NCBI GenBank assembly: GCA_046292385.1
Contig: JBKBRF010000008.1
Coordinates: 32,001-96,000 of the forward strand
Direction: 5' to 3'
Length of the DNA: 64,000 nt
DNA from: Armatimonadota bacterium
GTDB taxonomy: Bacteria; Armatimonadota; SYMT01
Below, in pieces: positions 3,892-25,887 of the stretch. Position 1 is the first letter of the stretch, and each line of letters starts with the position of its first letter. The position numbers and the translations under genes were made by a program. The notes under the pieces are model-generated. The model searched no databases. It saw only the letters and a list, made by a program, of their open reading frames with translations, and was not told where the DNA came from.

Positions 3892-4492
3892 ACTTCTCAC
3901 CGGCGTTCCACCCCGTGCCCTCACGCGGCGGAGCGGCCCTCCCGCGTGGGTGGCCCACCCGCAGTCCTTTCACGCTCCGCCTTCGGCTCCGCTAGCGGAT
4001 TGCTCCGGGCGTGCGCTCCGGCAGCCTGCGCCCCGCGACCGAAGACAACGATTCCCGCATTGCGGTGGTTCACGGGCCGCCCCGCCGCGCTCAAGCAGCC
4101 ACCCCCGGGTGCCCGCAAGCGGGCACCCGGGGGTGGCCACAAGTGAACCCCTCCAGCCCTGCCGCCGGCAGCCCTTCCGGGCTCCCATGGATTTGCAGGA
4201 ACCTGACCGGTGGCGTCCGGATGTGCGGCCGCAGGCGGCACTGGAGGGCGGCATTTGTGACCACCCCTGGGAGCCAGGGGTGGTCGCTCGACGGCGGCCG
4301 ATTCAGCCCGTGAACCAGACTGCTGTAGCAGTAGAGCGCACTGGCGCGGGATGAGCGCAGCGGTACGCACTCCCGGAGAGGCCCGCTAACGGAGCGAAGC
4401 GGAGTGTGAAAGGGCCGCCGGAGGGCACTCGCCGCGGGAGGGCTGAAGCGGCCGACTAGGGCGTGGGGTCGGTCTCACGGGTTCAACGCTGC
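3892..4492 (+). repeat. ~600-bp nested palindromic element, copy A (complete)
   Basis: Outer arms 3905-4014 and 4367-4470 are imperfect inverted repeats; perfect 19-bp stem 4098-4137; second ACCACCCCTGG..CCAGGGGTGGT palindrome at 4260-4284. Confidence 0.92.
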
Positions 4493-10904: not shown

Positions 10905-11348
10905 CGAGCGGCTCAAGCGACCACCCCCACCGCCCGCAAGCGGGCACCCGGGTGGTCACAGGTGAAACTCTCCAGCCTTGCCTCCGGCAGCGCTTCCGGG
11001 CTTCGCGAACCCCGATGCCCTGGGGGCACGAAGCCGGTCGTGCTGCACCGCCTGAAGGCAACCCGTCGGCGGCCGACCGTGCCCAGACCACAGGCGCCCG
11101 CCGGGTGCCAGTTGTGGCCACCCCTGGGCGGCAGGGGTGGTAGCTCGAAGGGTCGGGAGGCAGCCCGTGAGCTGCCCTATCGGCGCGGGTTACGCATCCT
11201 GGCGCGGGAAGAGCTTTTCGACGTCAGCTCCCGCAGCGGCCTGCTAACGGAGCGCAGCGGAGTGTGAAAAGGCCGCGGAGGGCCTTCGTCGCGGGAGGGC
11301 TGCCTCCCGGCACAAGGGCTCGGGGTCGGGTCGCGGGATCGACGCTGC
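10905..11348 (+). repeat. Nested palindromic element, copy B (left outer arm missing)
   Basis: GCTCAAGC-ACCACCCC site, core, CCACCCCTGG..CAGGGGTGG site, and a right arm nearly identical to the reverse complement of copies D and E. Confidence 0.9.
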
Positions 11349-16132: not shown

Positions 16133-18994
16133 CTATCGCCGCGAGCCGGAGACGGGGACGCGCACCAGGGGACGGGCCGGGTCGTCGCTGGCGATCTCGA
16201 GAGTTTGCCGGAAGCTCCCCGCGTTCTGCGGCGTGAAGGTGACGACCAGCTCCTGGGACTGCTTCGGACCGAGGACCACCGGTCCGGTAGGGCTGACGCT
16301 GAACGGCTCCCCGAGCGACTGCACCTGGAGCGCAAGCGGCCCCTTTCCGGTATTGCGAGCCTTGAGCCGCTCGACCCGGGTCCGGCTGCGGGTGACGCGG
16401 CCGAAGCTGATCTTTCCAGGCGTCAGGCGGAGCACCCCCTCCGCGGCCGGGGTGGTGATCGTCGCCAGGTTGGAGTACGGCGAGGCTCCCATGGCGCTGA
16501 CCGCCCGTACGCGGTACGTGTAGGTCGTCTCCGCGGAGAGCCCGAAGTCGCGGTAGCTCTCGGTCCCCGCTGCTACGGTGGCGATCGTCTCGAAGCCGTC
16601 GCCGTCCCAATCGGCGGGGACGCCCCCGATCCGGCGCTCGATCTGGAAGCCTCCTCCGTCCTGGAACCGGTCCAGCCAGGAGAGATGGAGGACGGTGGCC
16701 GCGTGCGCGGTCAGCGTCAGGTTGGAAGGCGGGCCGAACGGCGCGAAGCCGACCTTCGCCACAAAGGCGTCCTCCCCGCCGCTGTGAGTGGCACCCGGTC
16801 CATTCACCACGGGAAAGCCCTGGCCCGGCGTGGAGTAGGCGGTTCCGCAGACGTGGGCGACTCCCTGCGTGTCGAGCGCGATCCCCTCGCCCGTCTCGTC
16901 GTCGCTCCCGCCGATATAACCCGCGTAGACGAGCCCCGTCCCCCCGGGCTGGATCCTCGCCACGAAGAGATCGCTGCCGCCATTGTGCGAGAGGTCCGGG
17001 CCGGAAAGCGCGGGAAAGCCCTGCGCCGAAGACGACCAGGTGGTGCCGCAGACGTACGCGCCTCCCTGGCCGTCTACCGCGATGCTCTCTCCGTAGTCCG
17101 CGCCGGCGCCGCCCAGGTAGCCGCAGTATTCCAGCCCGGAGCCGCCCGGCTGCACCTTGGCGACGAACGCGTCGAAGTTGCCGCCGTAGACGAGCTCCGG
17201 TCCTACGAGGGCCGGAAAGCCCTGGTGGGGCGAGGAGAGGGTGGTGCCGCAGAGATAGGCCGCCCCTACGCTGTCGATCGCGATGCCTTGCGCCCAATCG
17301 GACCCGCTGCCGCCCAGGTAGCCGCAGTATGCCAACCCGGTGCCGTTCGGCAGTACTTTGGCGACGAAGCCGTCGGTCCAGCCTGCGAAGGTGGTGTCGA
17401 GCCCGCCGCTCACCGGAAACCCCGGACCCTGACCCGAGGCAGGGGCGGAGCTGGTCCAGCCGCACACGTAGGCGGCCCCCTGCTGATCGACCGCGATGCT
17501 GCTCGCGTAGTCGTCGTCGCCGCCGCCGATGTAACCGCAGTACTCCAGCGCGGCGCCGCTGGGACGCAGCTTCGCCACCCAGGCGTCGAGTCCGTTGTTC
17601 CACTGGAGGTCCGGGCCGGTCTTCACCGGGAAATCGAAGTACTCGGTTGCCAGGGTCCAGCCGCACACGTAGGCCGCGCCGTTCTGATCGACTGCGATCC
17701 CCTGCGCCCGCGTCCCCCAGCCTCCCCCGATATAGCCGCAGTACTCCAGCACGTCTCCCTTGGAATTCAGCTTCGCGACCCAGGCGTTCGGGTTGGAGTT
17801 GAGGGGTCCGTTGAAGGTGAGATCGGGCCCTACCCGCGCCGGAAAGCCCTGGCTCTCCGCCGAGTAGGTGATCCCGCACAGGTAGGCGCTCCCCTGCTGG
17901 TCCACCGCGATGGCGTTCGCCGAGTCCAGCCGGTGCCCGCCAATGTAGCCGCAGTAGAGGAGCCCCGCCCCATCCGGCCGCACCCGGGCGACGAACGCAT
18001 CCTGGCTCGTCCCTTTTACGAGACTCGGTCCGAACGTGACCGGGAAGCCCTGGAGCTCGGAGGAGCTGGTGGTGCCGCAGACGTAGGCGTAGCCCAGGCG
18101 GTCGACCGCGATGGCGTGGGCCGACTCGTCCGCGGCGCCGCCCAGGTAGCCGCAGTAGAGCAGCACGGTCGGATCGATGACCAGGGTCTGCTCGCTGTCG
18201 TACGCGCCGAGCCGGAAGGAGACGACGGGATCTCCACCCGGCCCCGCTTCGACGCGATAGGCGGAAGACACCGCAGCTCGGCTCCCTCCGGCCTGGGTGA
18301 AGCTCATCGGCGCCTCATCGACCACCGTTCGGATCGGATTCTCCAGGCGCAGCCGGCCGGCGTCGTCTACCTTCACCCGTTCGGCGCCGCGTACGCGCAG
18401 GCGGATGACGCTCGGGTCCGCGCCGGGCTGCACCTCGAACTGATACTTCAGGGCGGAGCCGTCGCCGCGATAGACCAGGTCGATCCCCGGCCAGACCTCC
18501 CGGTACCTCACGCCCAGGAAGCTCGGCACGCCGGACTGCCAGTCGGCCTGCTCACCGCGGAAGAAGCTGAAGACGCACCCGGCAGGCTCGCTGCCTACCA
18601 CTTCCACCGCCGGATTGCTGTCTACGAACTCGACCCCCAGCGTCCACCGGCGCTCCGCCTCCTCCAGGGCTGCTTCCGCCGCTGGACGAGAGCCGGAGCG
18701 CAGGAGCGCGGCGTCCGCGCGCGGTGGGCTGCCGGACCGCTCCCGCAGCGTGAAGCGCACTCCGGTGCGCGTAAAGCCGACGTCCGCCTCGCTGCCGCGC
18801 GTGGAGTAGAGCACCTCCGCGCCGGCCTGCCCGCGGTTCTCCACGAAATAGAGCGGCACCCGGGCGAGCGAGGCGGCCGCGGGCGCGCTCGTGGCCGGGA
18901 GCGGCTGCAGGACGCCCCCGGGGAGGGCGAGTGTCGCTGCTCCGCCGATCAGGGTCAAGAGCAAAGTCCACGGGGCGCGAGCAGGTGCGGACAT
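16133..18994 (-). CDS. Secreted SBBP beta-propeller repeat protein with FN3 and Ig-like (ASPM-SPD-2-Hydin-like) domains
   Basis: 'FVENRGQ', 'LVIDP'; repeated 'YCGYLGG..D..IAVD..G.AYVCG.T.S'; FN3 'TYTYRVRA'; C-terminal 'NTG..L..F.P..G'. Confidence 0.85.
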   Translation of the reverse strand: MSAPARAPWTLLLTLIGGAATLALPGGVLQPLPATSAPAAASLARVPLYFVENRGQAGAEVLYSTRGSEADVGFTRTGVRFTLRERSGSPPRADAALLRSGSRPAAEAALEEAERRWTLGVEFVDSNPAVEVVGSEPAGCVFSFFRGEQADWQSGVPSFLGVRYREVWPGIDLVYRGDGSALKYQFEVQPGADPSVIRLRVRGAERVKVDDAGRLRLENPIRTVVDEAPMSFTQAGGSRAAVSSAYRVEAGPGGDPVVSFRLGAYDSEQTLVIDPTVLLYCGYLGGAADESAHAIAVDRLGYAYVCGTTSSSELQGFPVTFGPSLVKGTSQDAFVARVRPDGAGLLYCGYIGGHRLDSANAIAVDQQGSAYLCGITYSAESQGFPARVGPDLTFNGPLNSNPNAWVAKLNSKGDVLEYCGYIGGGWGTRAQGIAVDQNGAAYVCGWTLATEYFDFPVKTGPDLQWNNGLDAWVAKLRPSGAALEYCGYIGGGDDDYASSIAVDQQGAAYVCGWTSSAPASGQGPGFPVSGGLDTTFAGWTDGFVAKVLPNGTGLAYCGYLGGSGSDWAQGIAIDSVGAAYLCGTTLSSPHQGFPALVGPELVYGGNFDAFVAKVQPGGSGLEYCGYLGGAGADYGESIAVDGQGGAYVCGTTWSSSAQGFPALSGPDLSHNGGSDLFVARIQPGGTGLVYAGYIGGSDDETGEGIALDTQGVAHVCGTAYSTPGQGFPVVNGPGATHSGGEDAFVAKVGFAPFGPPSNLTLTAHAATVLHLSWLDRFQDGGGFQIERRIGGVPADWDGDGFETIATVAAGTESYRDFGLSAETTYTYRVRAVSAMGASPYSNLATITTPAAEGVLRLTPGKISFGRVTRSRTRVERLKARNTGKGPLALQVQSLGEPFSVSPTGPVVLGPKQSQELVVTFTPQNAGSFRQTLEIASDDPARPLVRVPVSGSRR

Positions 18995-19356
18995 GAGAGG
19001 CGGTCTCCGGGAGCGAACGGGTGCGGCCGGGCGCCGAGTGCCCTTCGCTGCGGCGTTCACCGCGGACGGCTGGTTGACCTCCGAACAGAGGGCCATCTCA
19101 CGGTAAAGAGATCGGCGGCAGAATGAAGGGCGCGTAATCGGGCGCGGGTTCGACAGTCCCGTCCGGAGTCCGAGAGGGAACGCGGGAGGCTGCGGCGAAT
19201 CGAAGACCAGTCCGCTCCCTCGCCCGAAGCCCGCGTAAGCCTCGCGCGGACCTCCCGGCGCTGAATGACTTGCGCCGGATTGCGGGACGGACTCTAGATT
19301 TCGCATCGATTCGCCGGCACTGCCGCTCTGGCAGCATCCGATAGTAGGAGCGTTCC

Positions 19357-20652
19357 ATGGCTCGAGCTTTCAATCGACGGACCTTTTTGATGGGCGCGCT
19401 CGCTGCGCCGGCGCTCACGCCGAGCATCGCACGGGCGGTACAGGAGCAGAAGCTCCGCGTGGCGGTGATCGGCGTGGGCGGCCAGGGCGCCTACACCTGG
19501 AGCAACCTCACCAGCGAGGAGATGGTGATGCTCTGCGACGTCGACCTCGCCCGCGTGGCGGACGCCGCGAAGCAGTACCCCAAGGCGGAAGTGGTGCAGG
19601 ACTTCCGGCGGGTGCTCGACCGGAAAGACATCGATGCTGTAGCGGTCTGCACGCCGGACCACTGGCACGCCATCCCCACCGTCTGGGCGATGCAGACCGG
19701 CAAGCATGTCTACTGCGAGAAGCCGCTGGGCCACTCCGTCTACGAGACCCGCGTGATGGCGGAGGTGGCGAAGGAGAAGAAGCGCGTCACCCAGATGGGC
19801 ACCCAGATCCATTCCGGCGGCAACTACCGGCGCGTGGTGGAGCTGGTACAGGCGGGCGCCATCGGCCCCGTGCGGCGGGTCGACGTCTGGTGCGAGCGCA
19901 GCCCGGACCGCGGCAAGCTCGGTCCGCAGGGGACGGCGCCGTCTACGCTCGACTACGACCTCTGGCTCGGCCCCGCGCCGGAGCGCCCGTTCAACTCCCA
20001 GATCGTGCCGTTCGGCTGGCGCTGGTGGTGGGAGTTCGGCGGCGGCGTGCTGGCGGACATGGCGTGCCACTTCATGGACCTCCCCCACTGGGCGCTCGGC
20101 CTGCGGCACCCGGAGCGGGTGAAGGCGGAAGGCACCACCTTTACCGACGCGGACAACACCGTTCCGAACCTGTTGAAGGTCGACTTCCACTACCCCGCGC
20201 GCGGCTCGCAGCCGCCGGTCCACCTGGTCTGGTGGCACGGCACCCCGGGCCCGCGGGATGACGAAGGGAAGGTCCGCAGCCTGCACGGCTTCGGCAGCGG
20301 CGTCCTCTTCACGGGCGAGAAGGGCCAGATCATCTCCGACTACGGCCGCCACATGCTGCTGCCGGAAGAGCAGTTCAAGGACTACCAGCGCCCCTCCCCG
20401 ACGATCCCCGACTCGGTGGGCCATCACCGGGAGTGGATCAACGCCATCAAGAACGGCGGCCCCACCACCTGCAACTTCGACTACAGCGGCGCCCTCACGG
20501 AGACGGTCCACCTCGGCAACGTCTCTTTCCGTCTCGGCGGCAAGGAGCTGCACTGGGATCCGAAGCGCCTCCGCGTCACTAACCTGCCGGAGAGCGAGTG
20601 GAAGCCGCTGATCCGCCGGGAGTACCGCGGGGATTGGAAGCTGAAGCGGTAG
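19357..20652 (+). CDS. Tat-exported Gfo/Idh/MocA family oxidoreductase
   Basis: 'NRRTFL' Tat motif, 'IGVGGQG', 'TPDHWH', 'YCEKP'. Confidence 0.9.
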   Translation: MARAFNRRTFLMGALAAPALTPSIARAVQEQKLRVAVIGVGGQGAYTWSNLTSEEMVMLCDVDLARVADAAKQYPKAEVVQDFRRVLDRKDIDAVAVCTPDHWHAIPTVWAMQTGKHVYCEKPLGHSVYETRVMAEVAKEKKRVTQMGTQIHSGGNYRRVVELVQAGAIGPVRRVDVWCERSPDRGKLGPQGTAPSTLDYDLWLGPAPERPFNSQIVPFGWRWWWEFGGGVLADMACHFMDLPHWALGLRHPERVKAEGTTFTDADNTVPNLLKVDFHYPARGSQPPVHLVWWHGTPGPRDDEGKVRSLHGFGSGVLFTGEKGQIISDYGRHMLLPEEQFKDYQRPSPTIPDSVGHHREWINAIKNGGPTTCNFDYSGALTETVHLGNVSFRLGGKELHWDPKRLRVTNLPESEWKPLIRREYRGDWKLKR

Positions 20653-20663
20653 CCTTTCAGGCG

Positions 20664-20850
20664 GGATTCTTCGACACAGAGGGACACAGAAGAACCAACA
20701 GAGGGGACACAGAAGTGAACGGGACGGGCGGGGCTTGCCGTGAGCCGAGGGGCTCGACGAGCGGCAGTAGGCAGGTAGGCCCGGCCTTATCCACCTGAAT
20801 TCTGTGTCCCCTCTGTTCCGTCTGTGTCTCTCTGTACTACTCACCGCGAG
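20664..20850. repeat. Inverted ACACAGAG-type repeat pair flanking element D
   Basis: GACACAGAGGGACACAGA...AACAGAGGGGACACAGAA paired with TTCTGTGTCCCCTCTGTT...TCTGTGTCTCTCTGT; same motif at 23578-23620 and 24484-24530. Confidence 0.8.
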
Positions 20851-20953
20851 AATCTTGCGGGGATGCGCAGATTCTGCTGGCGGTCATCGCGCGCCTGGGC
20901 CTCGCGGAGCCGGAGGGTGCCAGTTGTGTGGCGCTTTTGCTTCTCTTCGAGCT

Positions 20954-21562
20954 GCAGCCTCGATCCCGCAACCCGACCCCGCGCCCTTGTGCCGGGAGGC
21001 AGCCCTCCCGCGACGAAAGCCCTCCGCGGCCTTTCACACTCCGCTCCGCTCCGTTAGCAGGCCGCTGCGGGAACTCCCGCCGAGAAGCTCATCCCGCGCC
21101 AGGAAGCGTAACCCGTGCCGACAGGGAAGCTCACGGGCTGCCTCCCGACCCTTCGAGCTACCACCCCTCGCCAGGGGTGGTTACAACTGGCGCCCTCCGG
21201 GCGCCTCCGGTCTGAGCACGGTCGGCCGCCCGGTTGCCTCAAGCCGGTGCCGCACTACCAGCTTCGCGCCCCCAGCGCGTGGGGGTCTGCGAAGCCCGGA
21301 AGCACTGCCGAAGGCAGGGCTGGAGGGGTTCACCTGTGACCACCCCTGCGAGGGGTGGTCGCTTGAGCCGTCTGGAGCGGCCCGTGAACCGTGATCTGGC
21401 TACAGGCGCCGCCTACGGACGCGGAACGCAGCGCGCCGGGGAGCACGCCCGCAGCGCCCGCTAGCGGAGGCGAAGCCGGAGCGTGAAAGGGCCGCGGAGG
21501 GCCACCCACGCGGGAGGGCCGCTCCGGGCGGGGAGGGCGCGGGGTGGACCCTCGGCGCGATC
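20954..21562 (-). repeat. Nested palindromic element, copy D (complete)
   Basis: All modules present in reverse orientation; core 21187-21333. Confidence 0.92.
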
Positions 21563-21639
21563 CTGATCTCGACTATCCGAGCAGTCTTCCGCCGCCGTGA
21601 GATTGGTGGCGGCATCAGCCGTGCTGTGTCTGAAATCCG

Positions 21640-22710
21640 CTACGGCAGCCGCAGGCGGAAGGCTCTCGGCTGGCCGTTCAGGCGGCCCTGGCCGCAGACC
21701 TGGTTCGCCGCGTTGATCCCGTAGGCGATCTGCAGGTTCCAGCCGCTCCCCTTCGGCAGCAGGGTGTTCAGGTCGATCACCTTGTTCCCGCGCCAGAGGG
21801 TGGCGCGCAGCTCGCCGCCGGCCGTGGCGGAGTAGCCGACGATCTTCCCGGCCGGGTCGATGCCGTAGGCGCAGCTCACCGCTTCGCCGGGAAGGCTCTT
21901 CAGCGCGGTGGGGCGGGCATTCTTCCGGCTGGAGCGCCAGGCCACCGCGCGGCGCGTGCGGAAGCCGAGGTCGTCGGTCTTCCCCGTCTCCGACTCGCCG
22001 ACCGCAACTCCCCGGGTGTTGATGGCGTAGGCGGTGGCGAACTTCGAGCCCCTCAGCCCGCGGAGCGGCAGGAGCCGGCTCCCCTGGAACCGGGCCGGGG
22101 CGAACCGGACGGTGCCGTCTTTCTCCTCGCCGGTTGAGTAGCGGCCGGCCATGGTACCGCCGGTGTTGATGCCGAAGGCGAGGCTATAGTCGGCGTCATC
22201 TCGCGTCGCGTTCGGGCCGCGCAGGCCTTTCCACCGCACGCCGCGGAGCAGCCCCTCGGGGGTATCCGAGGTGCCGGCGATCAGCGTCGTGCCGGCAAGC
22301 GACCGCGCCGTACTGGACGAAGCGCCGGAGAGGACGGCGAGGTCCAGCATGGTCTCCTCGGCGTGGATGAAGGCGTGGTTGAACAGGCGTCCGGAGCCGG
22401 CGTCGGTGAGCGACTCCCCCACCACCTGCGGCCCCAACACCGCGCGGCCGAAGCTGTCGGTGCCGCCGGGGAGCGTGCCGAGATCCTGCGCTTCCCTGCC
22501 CAGCCAGGCCGTCGCGTGGAAGCGGCCGTCCGGCATCTGGGACGCGCCGGCGACGCGCCCGCTGGCGCAAATGCCGTACGCCACGCTGTAGGTGCCGCCG
22601 GGAAGCGGGGGGAGCGCGTCGATCTTGACACGCGCGGAGCCGACCTCGTCCTGGCAGAGCGCCAGGGCAGCGGCAGCGAAGATCAGGGCGGCGGCGCGGC
22701 GGGTCGACAT
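21640..22710 (-). CDS. Secreted HAF-type extracellular repeat protein
   Basis: Signal peptide; 'DLGTLPGG', 'AYAIN..G..VG.S', 'HAF', 'DLNTLLP..SGW.L..AYGIN'. Confidence 0.85.
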   Translation of the reverse strand: MSTRRAAALIFAAAALALCQDEVGSARVKIDALPPLPGGTYSVAYGICASGRVAGASQMPDGRFHATAWLGREAQDLGTLPGGTDSFGRAVLGPQVVGESLTDAGSGRLFNHAFIHAEETMLDLAVLSGASSSTARSLAGTTLIAGTSDTPEGLLRGVRWKGLRGPNATRDDADYSLAFGINTGGTMAGRYSTGEEKDGTVRFAPARFQGSRLLPLRGLRGSKFATAYAINTRGVAVGESETGKTDDLGFRTRRAVAWRSSRKNARPTALKSLPGEAVSCAYGIDPAGKIVGYSATAGGELRATLWRGNKVIDLNTLLPKGSGWNLQIAYGINAANQVCGQGRLNGQPRAFRLRLP

Positions 22711-22813
22711 TCGGCACTCCCCAGAGCGATCGATTCTCTGCCAGCCAATTGAGCGAGCGAAGGACAGTTCCCTCCCTCTGTGGAACAGCAGACCACCTTT
22801 CGTGGAGGGTCTG

Positions 22814-23578
22814 ATGAGTAACCGGGGACGTAAGTCGGCAGCCAGGATCGCAGTGGCAGTGGGAGTGCTGCTGCTGGTCTGCGCCTTTCTCTTCCGCGGG
22901 CACGCCGCGTCTGCGCTCGGCGGCGAGCCCGCGCTGACCGTCTACGTGCTGCGCAGCGGCAGCGCGGAGCAGGACGGCGCGGTGGAAGCGGCGCTGCAGG
23001 AAGCGGGCTACTCCGTGACGATGGGCGTGCCGACCCCGGTCTGGGACGGCACTTCCGCAGACCTCACCGCGTTCGACGTTGTGGTGCTGCTGAACAGCTA
23101 CAACTGGATCAGCACGGAGATGCCGTCTGCCGGCCAGCGCGCGCTGATGAGCTACGTCGCCGGCGGTGGCGGGCTGATTACGGCGGAGTGGCTGATGTGG
23201 AACGTCTACCGCAGCGGCGCCGCCTCCGGCCTGGCCCCGGCCCTCCCCGCCACCACCTCCAGCTACGTCGCCGCCGTCGAGCCGATCACCTACACTCGCG
23301 CGGCGGCCGACCCGGTGCTGGACGAGGGTGTCGCCGACTCCTTTACCTTCGCGCCGAACGACGTCTTCGGGAGCGAGTCGACCCTCAAGCCGAAGCAGGG
23401 CGCCACCGTCTTCTACCAGAGCGGCGGCGCGAGCGGCGCGGGTGTCCTCGGATGGGACTACCGCGAAGGGCGGGTGCTCAGCTTCTCCACCTTCATCAGC
23501 CAGGCCGAGCTGGCCCACCCGGACTACCGCCGCCTCTTCCGGAACGGGGTGCGCTGGGCGGCGGGGGATTCTTTTTAG
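22814..23578 (+). CDS. Secreted protein, probable class I glutamine amidotransferase-like/ThuA-like fold
   Basis: Signal peptide; 'DLTAFDVVVL', 'YVAGGGGL', 'LFRNGVRWAA'. Confidence 0.6.
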   Translation: MSNRGRKSAARIAVAVGVLLLVCAFLFRGHAASALGGEPALTVYVLRSGSAEQDGAVEAALQEAGYSVTMGVPTPVWDGTSADLTAFDVVVLLNSYNWISTEMPSAGQRALMSYVAGGGGLITAEWLMWNVYRSGAASGLAPALPATTSSYVAAVEPITYTRAAADPVLDEGVADSFTFAPNDVFGSESTLKPKQGATVFYQSGGASGAGVLGWDYREGRVLSFSTFISQAELAHPDYRRLFRNGVRWAAGDSF

Positions 23579-23817
23579 ACACAGAGGGACACAGAAGAAC
23601 CTGCAGAAGGAACACAGATTTGAATTGAGCCAGCGCTCTTGCCGGGTTCCGATAGCCCAACGGGAGTCGGAAGGGGCCTGAGTCGCTTGCTCACTTCTCT
23701 GTACTACTCACCGTGAGAGTTTTGTCGAGCCGGGCAGATTCTGCCGGCGGGCATGGCGCGTGGAGCTTGCGAAGCGGAAGGGGCCAGTCTTGAGGCATCT
23801 TTGCTTCTCTTTGAGAT

Positions 23818-24422
23818 GCAGCCTCGATCCCACGACCCGACCCCGAGCCCTTGTGCCGGAAGGCAGCCCTCCCGCGACGAAGGCCCTCCGCGGCCTTTTC
23901 ACACTCCGCTGCGCTCCGTTAGCAGGCCGCTGCGGGAGTGCAATTCGCCAAGCTCTTCCCGCGCCAGGAAGCGTAACCCGTGCCGACAGGGGAGCTCACG
24001 GGCTGCCTCCCGACCCTTCGAGCTACCACCCCTCGCCAGGGGTGGTCACAAGTGAACCCCTCCAGCCCTGCCTCCGGCAGCGCTTCCGGGCTTCGCAGAT
24101 CCGCTCGCCCGAGTGCGCGGCCGGTCGTGCCGGACCGGCTTGAGGCAACCCGTCGGCGGCGGACCGTGCCCAGACCACAGGCGTCCGGAGGACGCCAATT
24201 ATGACCACCCCTGGCGAGGGGTGGTCGCTTGAGCCGCCCGGAGCGGCCCGTGAGTCGCCGCATCGCTACTACCGCAGGCCACAAACGCGGAGCGCAGCCA
24301 GTCGAAGGGCACGCCCGGAGCAGTCCGCTAGCCCGGAGGGCGTGAAAGGACTGCGGGAGGGCCACCCACGCGGGAGGGCCGCTCCGGGTGGGGATGGCGC
24401 GGGGTGGACTCCCGGAGCGATG
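23818..24422 (-). repeat. Nested palindromic element, copy E (complete; central core inverted)
   Basis: Flanks collinear with copy D, but core 24052-24198 matches the reverse complement of the D core. Confidence 0.92.
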
Positions 24423-24528
24423 ACGGTCTCGACGAGAGAATCTTTCTCCCGCCGCCTCGAGTTTGGTTGCGGCATCAGCCGCGCTGTGTCCCCTCTGTTC
24501 AGTCTGTGTCCCTCTGTGTCGAAAGAAA

Positions 24529-25887
24529 TCACCCCACGGCGACCATGTGGGCCTGGGTGCGAAAGACCAGCATCTCCGGGGCGATGGCGGGGGTGGCCAT
24601 GCAGACCTCGCCCATCGGGTTGACGGAGAGCAGCTCGAACTTCTCACCCGCCTTCACCACGTAGATGTCGCCGTCTTCGCTGGTGAAGTAGAGGCGCCCG
24701 TCCGCGGCGACCGGTGACGCGGTGAATCCCGTGCGGCCGGTGCCGAGGCGCTCCTGGTAGACGCGGGCGCCGGTGCGGGCCTCATAGCAGCTCAGCGCGC
24801 CGTTGTCCCGGCAGACGTAGAGGTGGTCGCCGTAGACGATCGGCGTCTGCATGTAGCCGCCCTCCCGGTGGGTGCTCCAGGCGACGTGCGCGTTGGTGGT
24901 CGCCCCTTCCGGCAGGGAGATGTCCCCCTTGGCGTCGAGGCGGATCGCGTAGATCGGCGCCATGCGGCCGTGGGCATTGGTGATGAAGATCAGGTCGTGC
25001 GCGACTACCGGCGTGGGGACCGGGATGTCGCCGCCGCCGGTCAGGCGCCAGAGCTCCGCGCCGGTCTTCAGGTCGTACCCGCCGATCTGCTTCCACCCGT
25101 TCACGATCACCTGGGTGCGCCCGTTGGCGGTGTGGACCGTCGGCGTGCCCCAGGTCGGCACGTCGTTCCGCGGGGTGCGCCACAACTCGCTGCCGTTCCG
25201 CACGTCGAGCGCGGCCACGAAGCCGCCTTTCTGCACGTCACACTGCACCACCACCACGCCGTCGTGGATCACCGGCGAGCTGGCGAAGCCCCACTGCGCG
25301 GCAGGAACCATGAAGTAGCCGGAGTCGAGGACGCCGAAGTCTTTCTTCCAGAGCAGCTTGCCGTCCGGCGCGTAGCAGTAGAGCCCCTCCGAGCCGAAGA
25401 AGGCGACGGCGTGCTTTCCGTCGGTCGCCATCGTGGGGTTCGCCTGCGTCGCCTTCGTGTGCCGCTTCACCTTCGGCACGCCTTCGTGCGCGGTCCGCTC
25501 CCAGAGCACCTTGCCGCTCTTGCGGTCGAGGCAGAAGACGAGCCAGCGGTGGACGGTGTCGTCCTCTACCGGCCGGATGTCGCCGTAGAGCCCGACCTTC
25601 AGCTCCGGGTTCTCCTTCCCGCTCACGGCGGAGGTGACGTAGACGCGGTCGCCCCACACCACCGGGCTGGAGTGCCCGAGGCCGCGGATCGGGGTCTTCC
25701 AGCGGACGCCGGTGCCCGCCGCGGCGTCCCACTTAAGCGGCAGTCCCCTGACCGGGGAGACACCGGAGGCGTTCGGGCCGCGGAACGAGGGCCAGTGGGC
25801 GGCGGCCGGCGCGGCGAGAGCGCCCCGCGCGAGCAGGAGCGCCGGCGGGGCGAGGAGCAGCTCCCGGCGAGAGAAGGAACGAGACAT
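24529..25887 (-). CDS. Tat-exported PQQ-binding-like beta-propeller protein
   Basis: 'SRRELL', 'WPSFRGP', 'GHSSPVVWGD', 'ASPVAADG'. Confidence 0.88.
   Translation of the reverse strand: MSRSFSRRELLLAPPALLLARGALAAPAAAHWPSFRGPNASGVSPVRGLPLKWDAAAGTGVRWKTPIRGLGHSSPVVWGDRVYVTSAVSGKENPELKVGLYGDIRPVEDDTVHRWLVFCLDRKSGKVLWERTAHEGVPKVKRHTKATQANPTMATDGKHAVAFFGSEGLYCYAPDGKLLWKKDFGVLDSGYFMVPAAQWGFASSPVIHDGVVVVQCDVQKGGFVAALDVRNGSELWRTPRNDVPTWGTPTVHTANGRTQVIVNGWKQIGGYDLKTGAELWRLTGGGDIPVPTPVVAHDLIFITNAHGRMAPIYAIRLDAKGDISLPEGATTNAHVAWSTHREGGYMQTPIVYGDHLYVCRDNGALSCYEARTGARVYQERLGTGRTGFTASPVAADGRLYFTSEDGDIYVVKAGEKFELLSVNPMGEVCMATPAIAPEMLVFRTQAHMVAVG

Follow-up and report, generated by a model that had tools for sequence, protein, structure and literature searches.

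Inter-strand template switching is an established route by which the spacer between two inverted repeats is inverted and the repeat arms are homogenised (PMC5453318, PMC8604942, in the available parts of both texts). Comparable material has been described under two further names, namely invertons, in which a short segment lies between inverted repeats of 10–40 nt (available part of PMC11892184), and the hairpin repeats known as bacterial interspersed mosaic elements (BIMEs) or repetitive extragenic palindromic (REP) doublets forming hairpins (REPINs), of which the REP-associated tyrosine transposase (RAYT) genes adjoin their own repeats (available part of PMC3116915). Here, a window of 64,000 nt from an Armatimonadota bacterium (assembly GCA_046292385.1, contig JBKBRF010000008.1, positions 32,001–96,000, the whole stretch that was analysed) was examined for two copies, D and E, of a dispersed hairpin repeat; coordinates without a contig name refer to this window unless they are given for a copy on another contig. 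The 147-nt core of copy E is reversed relative to that of copy D between collinear flanks. With a probability of about 0.68, the flip is read as an old spacer inversion, produced by template switching or short-homology recombination at the hairpins that bound the core and accompanied by conversion between copies.

Anatomy of the flipped copy and of its family

Copies D and E are head-to-head pairs of about 800 nt, each made of two structured monomers of about 290 nt that belong to two types, L and R, with a likeness of about 70%. From the centre outward, a monomer consists of an inner hairpin, the tetranucleotide YTGT, a hairpin named H1 and a large folded arm; the core comprises the two inner hairpins and their spacer, and the palindromic sites described in the initial annotation are the H1 hairpins. 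The parts of both copies are as follows.

20832–21628, no strand assigned: copy D, a complete, canonical long-type doublet (L monomer, core, R monomer)
21159–21186, plus strand: left boundary of D, hairpin H1 of the L monomer and ACAA
21187–21333, plus strand: core of D, 147 nt, majority orientation (L-type inner hairpin, middle, R-type inner hairpin)
21334–21360, plus strand: right boundary of D, CTGT and hairpin H1 of the R monomer
23699–24488, no strand assigned: copy E, a complete long-type doublet with a flipped core
23703–24023, minus strand: left (L-type) arm of E, fold favoured on the strand leading away from the core
24024–24051, plus strand: left boundary hairpin of E and ACAA, containing the left arm of the 24-bp repeat (24025–24048)
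24052–24198, minus strand: core of E, 147 nt, opposite in orientation to 13 of the 14 other long-type cores
24199–24226, plus strand: right boundary hairpin of E, containing the right arm of the 24-bp repeat (24202–24225)
24227–24488, plus strand: right (R-type) arm of E
23579–24524 (approximate limits), no strand assigned: smaller inverted-repeat element with GACACAG-rich ends, inside which E is apparently nested

The D core was aligned globally with the E core, giving a score of 213 against the reverse complement and 75 on the same strand; the two cores are equal in length and 86% identical over aligned columns once E is reversed, which bears out the earlier description of the E core as the reverse-complement homologue of the D core. 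BLAST aligned the two copies collinearly at 77% over 751 nt and, across the centre, in reverse at 78% over 409 nt. The perfect 24-bp inverted repeat that had been reported at the boundary sites of E is present (24025–24048 and 24202–24225), and the crossover cannot be placed more finely than this repeat. Copies A (near 4143) and B (near 10962) share the core orientation of D, also as described. Folding energies of the monomers were −148 and −146 kcal/mol for E and −152 and −157 kcal/mol for D, with the inner hairpin and H1 retained in the folded monomers of E. A small inverted-repeat element rich in GACACAG/CTGTGTC lies beside D (20675–20835) and around E (23579–24524), and several long copies adjoin the same repeat at CTGT; in contigs of sequencing run X1, joints around 23579–24524 skip 865–906 nt and probably represent other copies without the insert.

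Searches with profiles made from 13 copies detected 121 loci of the family in the host assembly (7.04 Mb, 91 contigs, 69% G+C; marker-based completeness 98%, with repeats possibly absent from the contigs). The window lies on contig C8 (159 kb), which holds 12 family loci, several large contigs holding none; eight monomers are clustered in 26 kb of contig C40 (13676–39959). The family is intergenic, with a weak predicted open reading frame (ORF) inside one of the 121 loci, and by a crude gene call the flanking genes are arranged ++ at 32 loci, +− at 31, −− at 23 and −+ at 20, with 15 loci at a contig end. Most loci are single monomers. Pairs are 550–810 nt long, and the 27 facing pairs comprise 25 L–R pairs with a core, one L–L pair and one pair without a core. 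The long type, to which D and E belong, measures about 800 nt and has fixed ends, CTGT at the left and CTGTG at the right, as found at the termini of D. A subfamily of about 400 nt (C2:5044, C10:43565, C14:58422, C16:77361, C35:24644 and C4:205465) has both long-type outer ends but the R monomer only, and the retention of these ends suggests that they define a mobile unit.

The consensus fold was computed from 108 of the 137 arms, 67 monomers being of type L and 41 of type R. The outward strand was favoured, with G-T against A-C cells at 199:14 for L and 319:14 for R, compared with 20:30 and 118:24 when the inward strand was folded. Pairing in H1 was kept in 616 of 630 cells (shuffles: mean 422, maximum 445), a figure inflated by the scoring, in which 11 of the 137 arms were dropped and stems were required to hold at least 6 of 9 pairs. 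The 126 scored hairpins displayed 32 different 7-nt stem starts, the shape being conserved and the sequence not, and 121 of them were followed by ACAA or ACAG, which is YTGT on the folded strand. H1 with the adjoining TCACA forms the best-matched stretch between the two monomer halves; because H1 is itself palindromic, each H1 site repeats the other in the inverted as well as in the direct sense.

No match at the gathering score of Rfam 15 was obtained in the window, and an Rfam scan of 20600–24600 gave chance-level matches only, outside the element. A DNA search of 40 relatives, among which there was no other genome of the same genus, gave weak matches in four and convincing ones only in G005, a relative of the same family that holds related elements. 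In a relative (loci L026 and L028), monomers are situated within or alongside a CRISPR-like repeat array that adjoins Cas1/Cas2-like ORFs (by eye). A genome-collection scan with the conserved motif returned six loci from one record set, all titled Armatimonadota, and a metagenome scan for the long-type L junction returned none. One viral locus (L031) was found, carrying one diverged monomer between phage-like ORFs, where no transposase-like ORF was seen by eye; the element may accordingly travel on phages. No published account of this repeat family, or of flipped REPIN/BIME linkers, was found in searches that left most subscription papers outside.

Core orientation, rearranged copies and exchange

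Eighteen long-type loci were picked by hand, leaving aside the R-only derivatives of about 400 nt, and the core could be measured in 15. Thirteen cores were canonical and two flipped, E and a copy on contig C9 (hereafter C9); at most two flipped among 15 corresponds to p = 0.004 under a 50:50 expectation, for copies that are kin and not independent. Among the 25 intact L–R pairs E alone is flipped (1/25), C9 standing outside this set with an interrupted right arm. An R-type inner segment occurs on two of 76 L-type arms, again E and C9, which both scored −45.5 in a leave-one-out classifier, the next L arm scoring −6.1. In the relative, loci L025–L030 showed each arm type with its own inner segment in four of four pairs (by eye). 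The 24-bp repeat of E is the second longest of the 25 pairs; canonical copy C8:6882 has a longer perfect inverted repeat, of 29 bp, and is unflipped. A genome-wide tally of orientation had been suggested earlier as a check on whether E is a one-off, and the existence of C9 means that E is not the sole exception; the proposal of a cassette inverted by a site-specific recombinase is not supported by the same tally, in view of the 13:2 bias, the unflipped 29-bp repeat and the rarity of R-type inner segments on L arms.

Further candidates were examined and set aside. C23:52904 and C50:23827 were rejected as flipped copies, their inner segments being L-type, and C8:18254, which had appeared odd, is without H1 or an inner segment to score. 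Several R arms scored as carrying an L-type inner segment had been misparsed at GCAA loops or were L arms assigned to the wrong bin, and the R arm C32:6380, with a mixed inner segment, was not counted as flipped. The L–L facing pair at C14:104408–105097 (L008) has a 39-bp perfect inverted repeat at H1, and a flip there would be invisible by arm type.

In both E and C9 the crossover points lie inside the palindromic sites, in agreement with the initial annotation, which had taken the palindromes for crossover sites. The arms of the two copies are not sister sequences: an E + C9 clade was rejected for the left arm (approximately unbiased test, p-AU 8e-7) and for the outer right arm (1e-6), and the C9 arms group with those of copy C21a at 94–95% identity. 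The C9 core is 78% like that of C21a and 91% like that of E, and the cores of E and C9 are mutual best matches (91%), in a weak grouping with support of 67/41. A run of 68 identical bases across the flipped left junction (24035–24102) is common to E and C9 only; this stretch equals the family consensus, and none of the 13 canonical cores matches it fully over the last 51 nt. A core clade of C9 with C21a was not rejected (p-AU 0.23). Core swapping between copies is thus no more than suggested; E and C9 may stem from two independent flips, or from a single flip that was later copied to a locus with different arms. In a third long-type copy, C31 (13321–13934), the whole core is deleted between the H1 sites, leaving the L arm, one hairpin and the R arm, a deletion that two palindromic sites permit, since they match each other in direct as well as in inverted orientation. 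Copies C57 and C18 bear other deletions, with ends at short homologies.

The right H1 of C9 holds in its loop (132455–132692, L009) an element of about 255 nt with 18-nt terminal inverted repeats starting GATACTG, accompanied by a 6-bp duplication. Of the 71 such ends in the genome, 20 adjoin an H1-like half site and 44 lie no more than 300 nt from a contig end; the element probably causes many assembly breaks. It is also inserted in another hairpin repeat, ending CGCAAG. At C6:73829–75366 two ends of the GATACTG element enclose an ORF for an IS110-family transposase (362-aa frame), which may have been inserted into this element or may be its parent; the 1.4-kb contig C91 is taken up by a second IS110 gene.

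The analysis of exchange between copies used the 11 complete canonical copies, which hold 128 informative sites. Linkage (r2) fell from 0.38 within 25 nt to 0.11–0.15 beyond 50 nt, and neighbouring sites were more compatible than in every one of 500 permutations (0.30 against 0.49). Linkage was 0.07–0.10 across H1, 0.09–0.15 inside the core and 0.06–0.09 at some arm positions, with no distinct drop at H1 in these 11 copies. Because linkage across H1 is no lower than in the core or at some arm positions, exchange is general along the whole length and not confined to the palindromes. Against the family consensus, the E core shows 16 differing columns (10–29 in the other cores) and is therefore not a fresh copy; its flip is most likely old.

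Origin of the flip

If, on rare occasions, replication switched template from one H1 site of a pair to the other, or if the two sites recombined through their short homology, the core would be inverted, as in E and C9; the same H1–H1 event may instead delete it, as in C31. In favour of this reading, H1 is the longest perfect inverted match in seven of the 12 intact long-type pairs. The flip would do no more than exchange the inner hairpins between the two monomers, each of which retains an inner hairpin, YTGT, H1 and an arm; because each monomer keeps all its parts and a similar fold energy, the product would be tolerated and need not be selected against. Conversion in patches between the dispersed copies could then carry such pieces from locus to locus, and the flip would represent a slow evolutionary rearrangement rather than a regulated switch. 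Of the two mechanisms offered in the initial annotation, hairpin-mediated template switching fits, also with regard to the core loss at the same sites in C31, and a site-specific recombinase is not supported, given the orientation bias, the variable sites and the lack of a linked enzyme.

Several points weigh against spacer inversion through short matches. All three whole-core events (E, C9 and C31) fell at H1, where a separate small element also inserts, and H1 may be a specific substrate and not merely the longest match. In five of the 12 intact long-type pairs the longest match lies elsewhere, yet flips with breakpoints in the arms were not found, arm hybrids having had no systematic screen. 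The linkage test covers 11 copies and is blurred by repeated or compensatory changes. Published spacer inversions concern spacers of a few bases (up to 70 being allowed in the yeast arm search), as far as the available parts of PMC5453318 and PMC8604942 extend, against 147 nt in E. The ancestral state of locus E is seen in no strain, and template switching and RecA-type recombination are indistinguishable here.

The flipped core of E is real: misassembly is unlikely because each junction is unique within about 45 nt, and the specific alternative that E was mis-joined from similar copies is very unlikely. It draws on the fragmentation of the assembly into 91 contigs, on the left part of E, which is made of 79-bp and 68-bp exact repeats common to C18 and C9, and on sequencing run X1, in which no listed contig spans 23879–24462; but the type-switching junctions (44 nt at the left, 45 nt at the right) are each single-copy in the genome and lie well within one read, the longest exact repeat over the right site measures 35 bp, and the same flip recurs in C9, which lies on a different contig, has a unique junction of its own and possesses two arms that agree phylogenetically. 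The sequencing-run evidence consisted of assembled contigs of four runs; those of X1 matched the flanks 22700–23878 and 24463–25400 without differences. An opposite-strand joint at 24034/24216 in run X3 (depth 2.1), which is also expected from canonical copies, and a 179-nt skip in run X4 (depth 3) were not used, as both can derive from other copies at 90% likeness. Double-strand recombinases require a conserved binding sequence, and the 32 stem variants of H1 speak against a phase-variable inverton whose core would be turned by a dedicated tyrosine, serine or IS110-type recombinase acting on the palindromic sites as double strands. Such an inverton is very unlikely, even though the 24-bp perfect repeat with its 147-nt spacer falls within the 10–40 nt range of inverton repeats (available part of PMC11892184), the two flipped copies have different arm backgrounds, and the genome encodes 18 tyrosine recombinases, two serine recombinases and two IS110 transposases. 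The initial annotation had proposed a search for an invertase or tyrosine recombinase near such sites; none of these matches lies on contig C8 or C9, leaving room for an unlinked enzyme, and the tyrosine recombinase nearest to any copy is 6.3 kb away. The 13:2 bias, the 29-bp repeat left unflipped, the failure to find a promoter-like site with a sigma-70 consensus and the position of E and C9 between converging 3' ends argue in the same direction. A reverse transcriptase (PF00078) was not found in the genome, and an IS91-type Y2 transposase gave no match with a model that was silent in all controls too and is therefore uninformative.

Alternatively, H1 with YTGT might be a recombination site defined by its single-strand structure, at which the HUH/Y1 transposase that spreads the family, acting in trans, or a hairpin-reading integrase would now and then excise cores, reinsert them backwards or swap them between loci. 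This we consider unlikely, though less so than the inverton. The pairing of H1 persists through 32 stem variants (616 of 630 cells paired, shuffle mean 422) with ACAA or ACAG after 121 of 126 hairpins. The same tetranucleotide stands at both outer ends of long copies. REPs likewise carry a conserved tetranucleotide at the hairpin foot, and pairs of them are cleaved and strand-transferred in vitro by TnpA-REP (available part of PMC3333891). The C9 arms resemble C21a with a core closer to that of E, and all three whole-core events are at H1. Five Y1 proteins are encoded in the genome (on C40, C83, C5, C51 and C22), two of which pass the RAYT cut-off (NF047646; C40:62314–62790 and C83:9667–10143). 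Against this stand the absence of a Y1 gene within 5.5 kb of any copy and the position of both RAYT genes beside a different, GGAGTG-type repeat (by eye); the RAYT on C40 is 22 kb from the nearest family copy, and C83 is without any. These two RAYTs may be the partner of the GGAGTG-type repeat family, whose hairpins also occur inside the GATACTG element. No integron integrase (TIGR02249) passed the cut-off of 265 bits, the best piece reaching 90 bits, nor did any of the control genomes exceed it. Mosaicism shows no focus on H1, and the C9 + C21a core clade was not rejected (p-AU 0.23). The bolder form of this idea, with H1 and YTGT as the site of an undescribed mobile element of about 290 nt, at which a HUH or integrase-like enzyme acting in trans would invert, delete and swap cores of about 150 nt among more than 100 copies, and, taken jointly with it, an attC-like shuffling of cassettes without an integron that would make E and C9 trapped products, is quite unlikely. 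If an enzyme did act at H1-YTGT, it would constitute a new structure-specific recombination system.

Genomic setting and comparison with known systems

Copies D and E are each flanked by two genes whose 3' ends point towards them.

19357–20652, plus strand: Gfo/Idh/MocA oxidoreductase gene, 3' end towards copy D
21640–22710, minus strand: 356-aa ORF without a Pfam match, 3' end towards copy D
22814–23578, plus strand: 254-aa ORF with a weak, sub-cut-off ThuA-like match, 3' end towards copy E
24529–25887, minus strand: PQQ_2/BamB-like beta-propeller gene, 3' end towards copy E

The other flipped copy, C9, is likewise placed between converging gene 3' ends. A sigma-70 consensus scan of 20600–24700, with other promoter types outside its scope, gave no promoter-like site; because of this and of the converging 3' ends, no gene under the control of the core flip in E is evident. 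Elsewhere in the window (16133–19306), a minus-strand ORF of 1057 aa contains seven internal repeats at a spacing of 201–213 nt.

Flip, core deletion and insertions alike point to H1-YTGT as the boundary of the modules, and they show the inner hairpins to be exchangeable between the two monomer types. The main use of the flip is as a clue to the uncatalogued family that hosts it. The element may also resemble group II introns, omega-RNA/HEARO and IS91 ends, with no match in the Rfam scans. Integron attC sites are likewise hairpins conserved in structure rather than sequence; their arrays are direct repeats after co-oriented cassette genes, whereas the copies here occur in all four arrangements of flanking genes. 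With invertons (available part of PMC11892184), E shares a short segment between inverted repeats and the occurrence of two orientations among copies; it differs from them in having no enzyme nearby, no promoter-like site, variable sites, a strong bias and one state seen per locus in the assembled contigs. As a caution, inverted repeats around a segment that is flipped across paralogues do not make an inverton.

The nearest counterparts of the host family are the BIMEs and REPINs with TnpA-REP/RAYT (available parts of PMC3333891 and PMC3116915). Both are abundant intergenic hairpin repeats that occur as singlets and as inverted pairs of two types, with compensatory changes, a tetranucleotide at the hairpin foot and a variable linker; both are targeted by another mobile element, and RAYT genes are present in the genome. 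REPs measure 30–40 nt and the monomer here about 290 nt, with a multi-branched fold; the REP tetranucleotide is GTAG in E. coli and YTGT here; and a RAYT gene adjoins its REPs, whereas no copy here adjoins one. The host family thus works like an oversized BIME/REPIN, but fails on unit size and RAYT linkage. For the flip itself, the closest process is spacer inversion between inverted repeats after the Ripley model (available parts of PMC5453318 and PMC8604942), with which E shares the collinear flanks, the reversed spacer, breakpoints in short inverted repeats, arms that are perfect afterwards and the lack of a dedicated enzyme. The described cases have spacers of a few bases, and E differs from them further in that each repeat arm is itself a hairpin, so that deletion is also possible, and in lying within a dispersed multicopy element, the copies of which exchange sequence. 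As most likely read, E is a clean natural example of the inversion of a 147-nt spacer inside a dispersed bacterial repeat.

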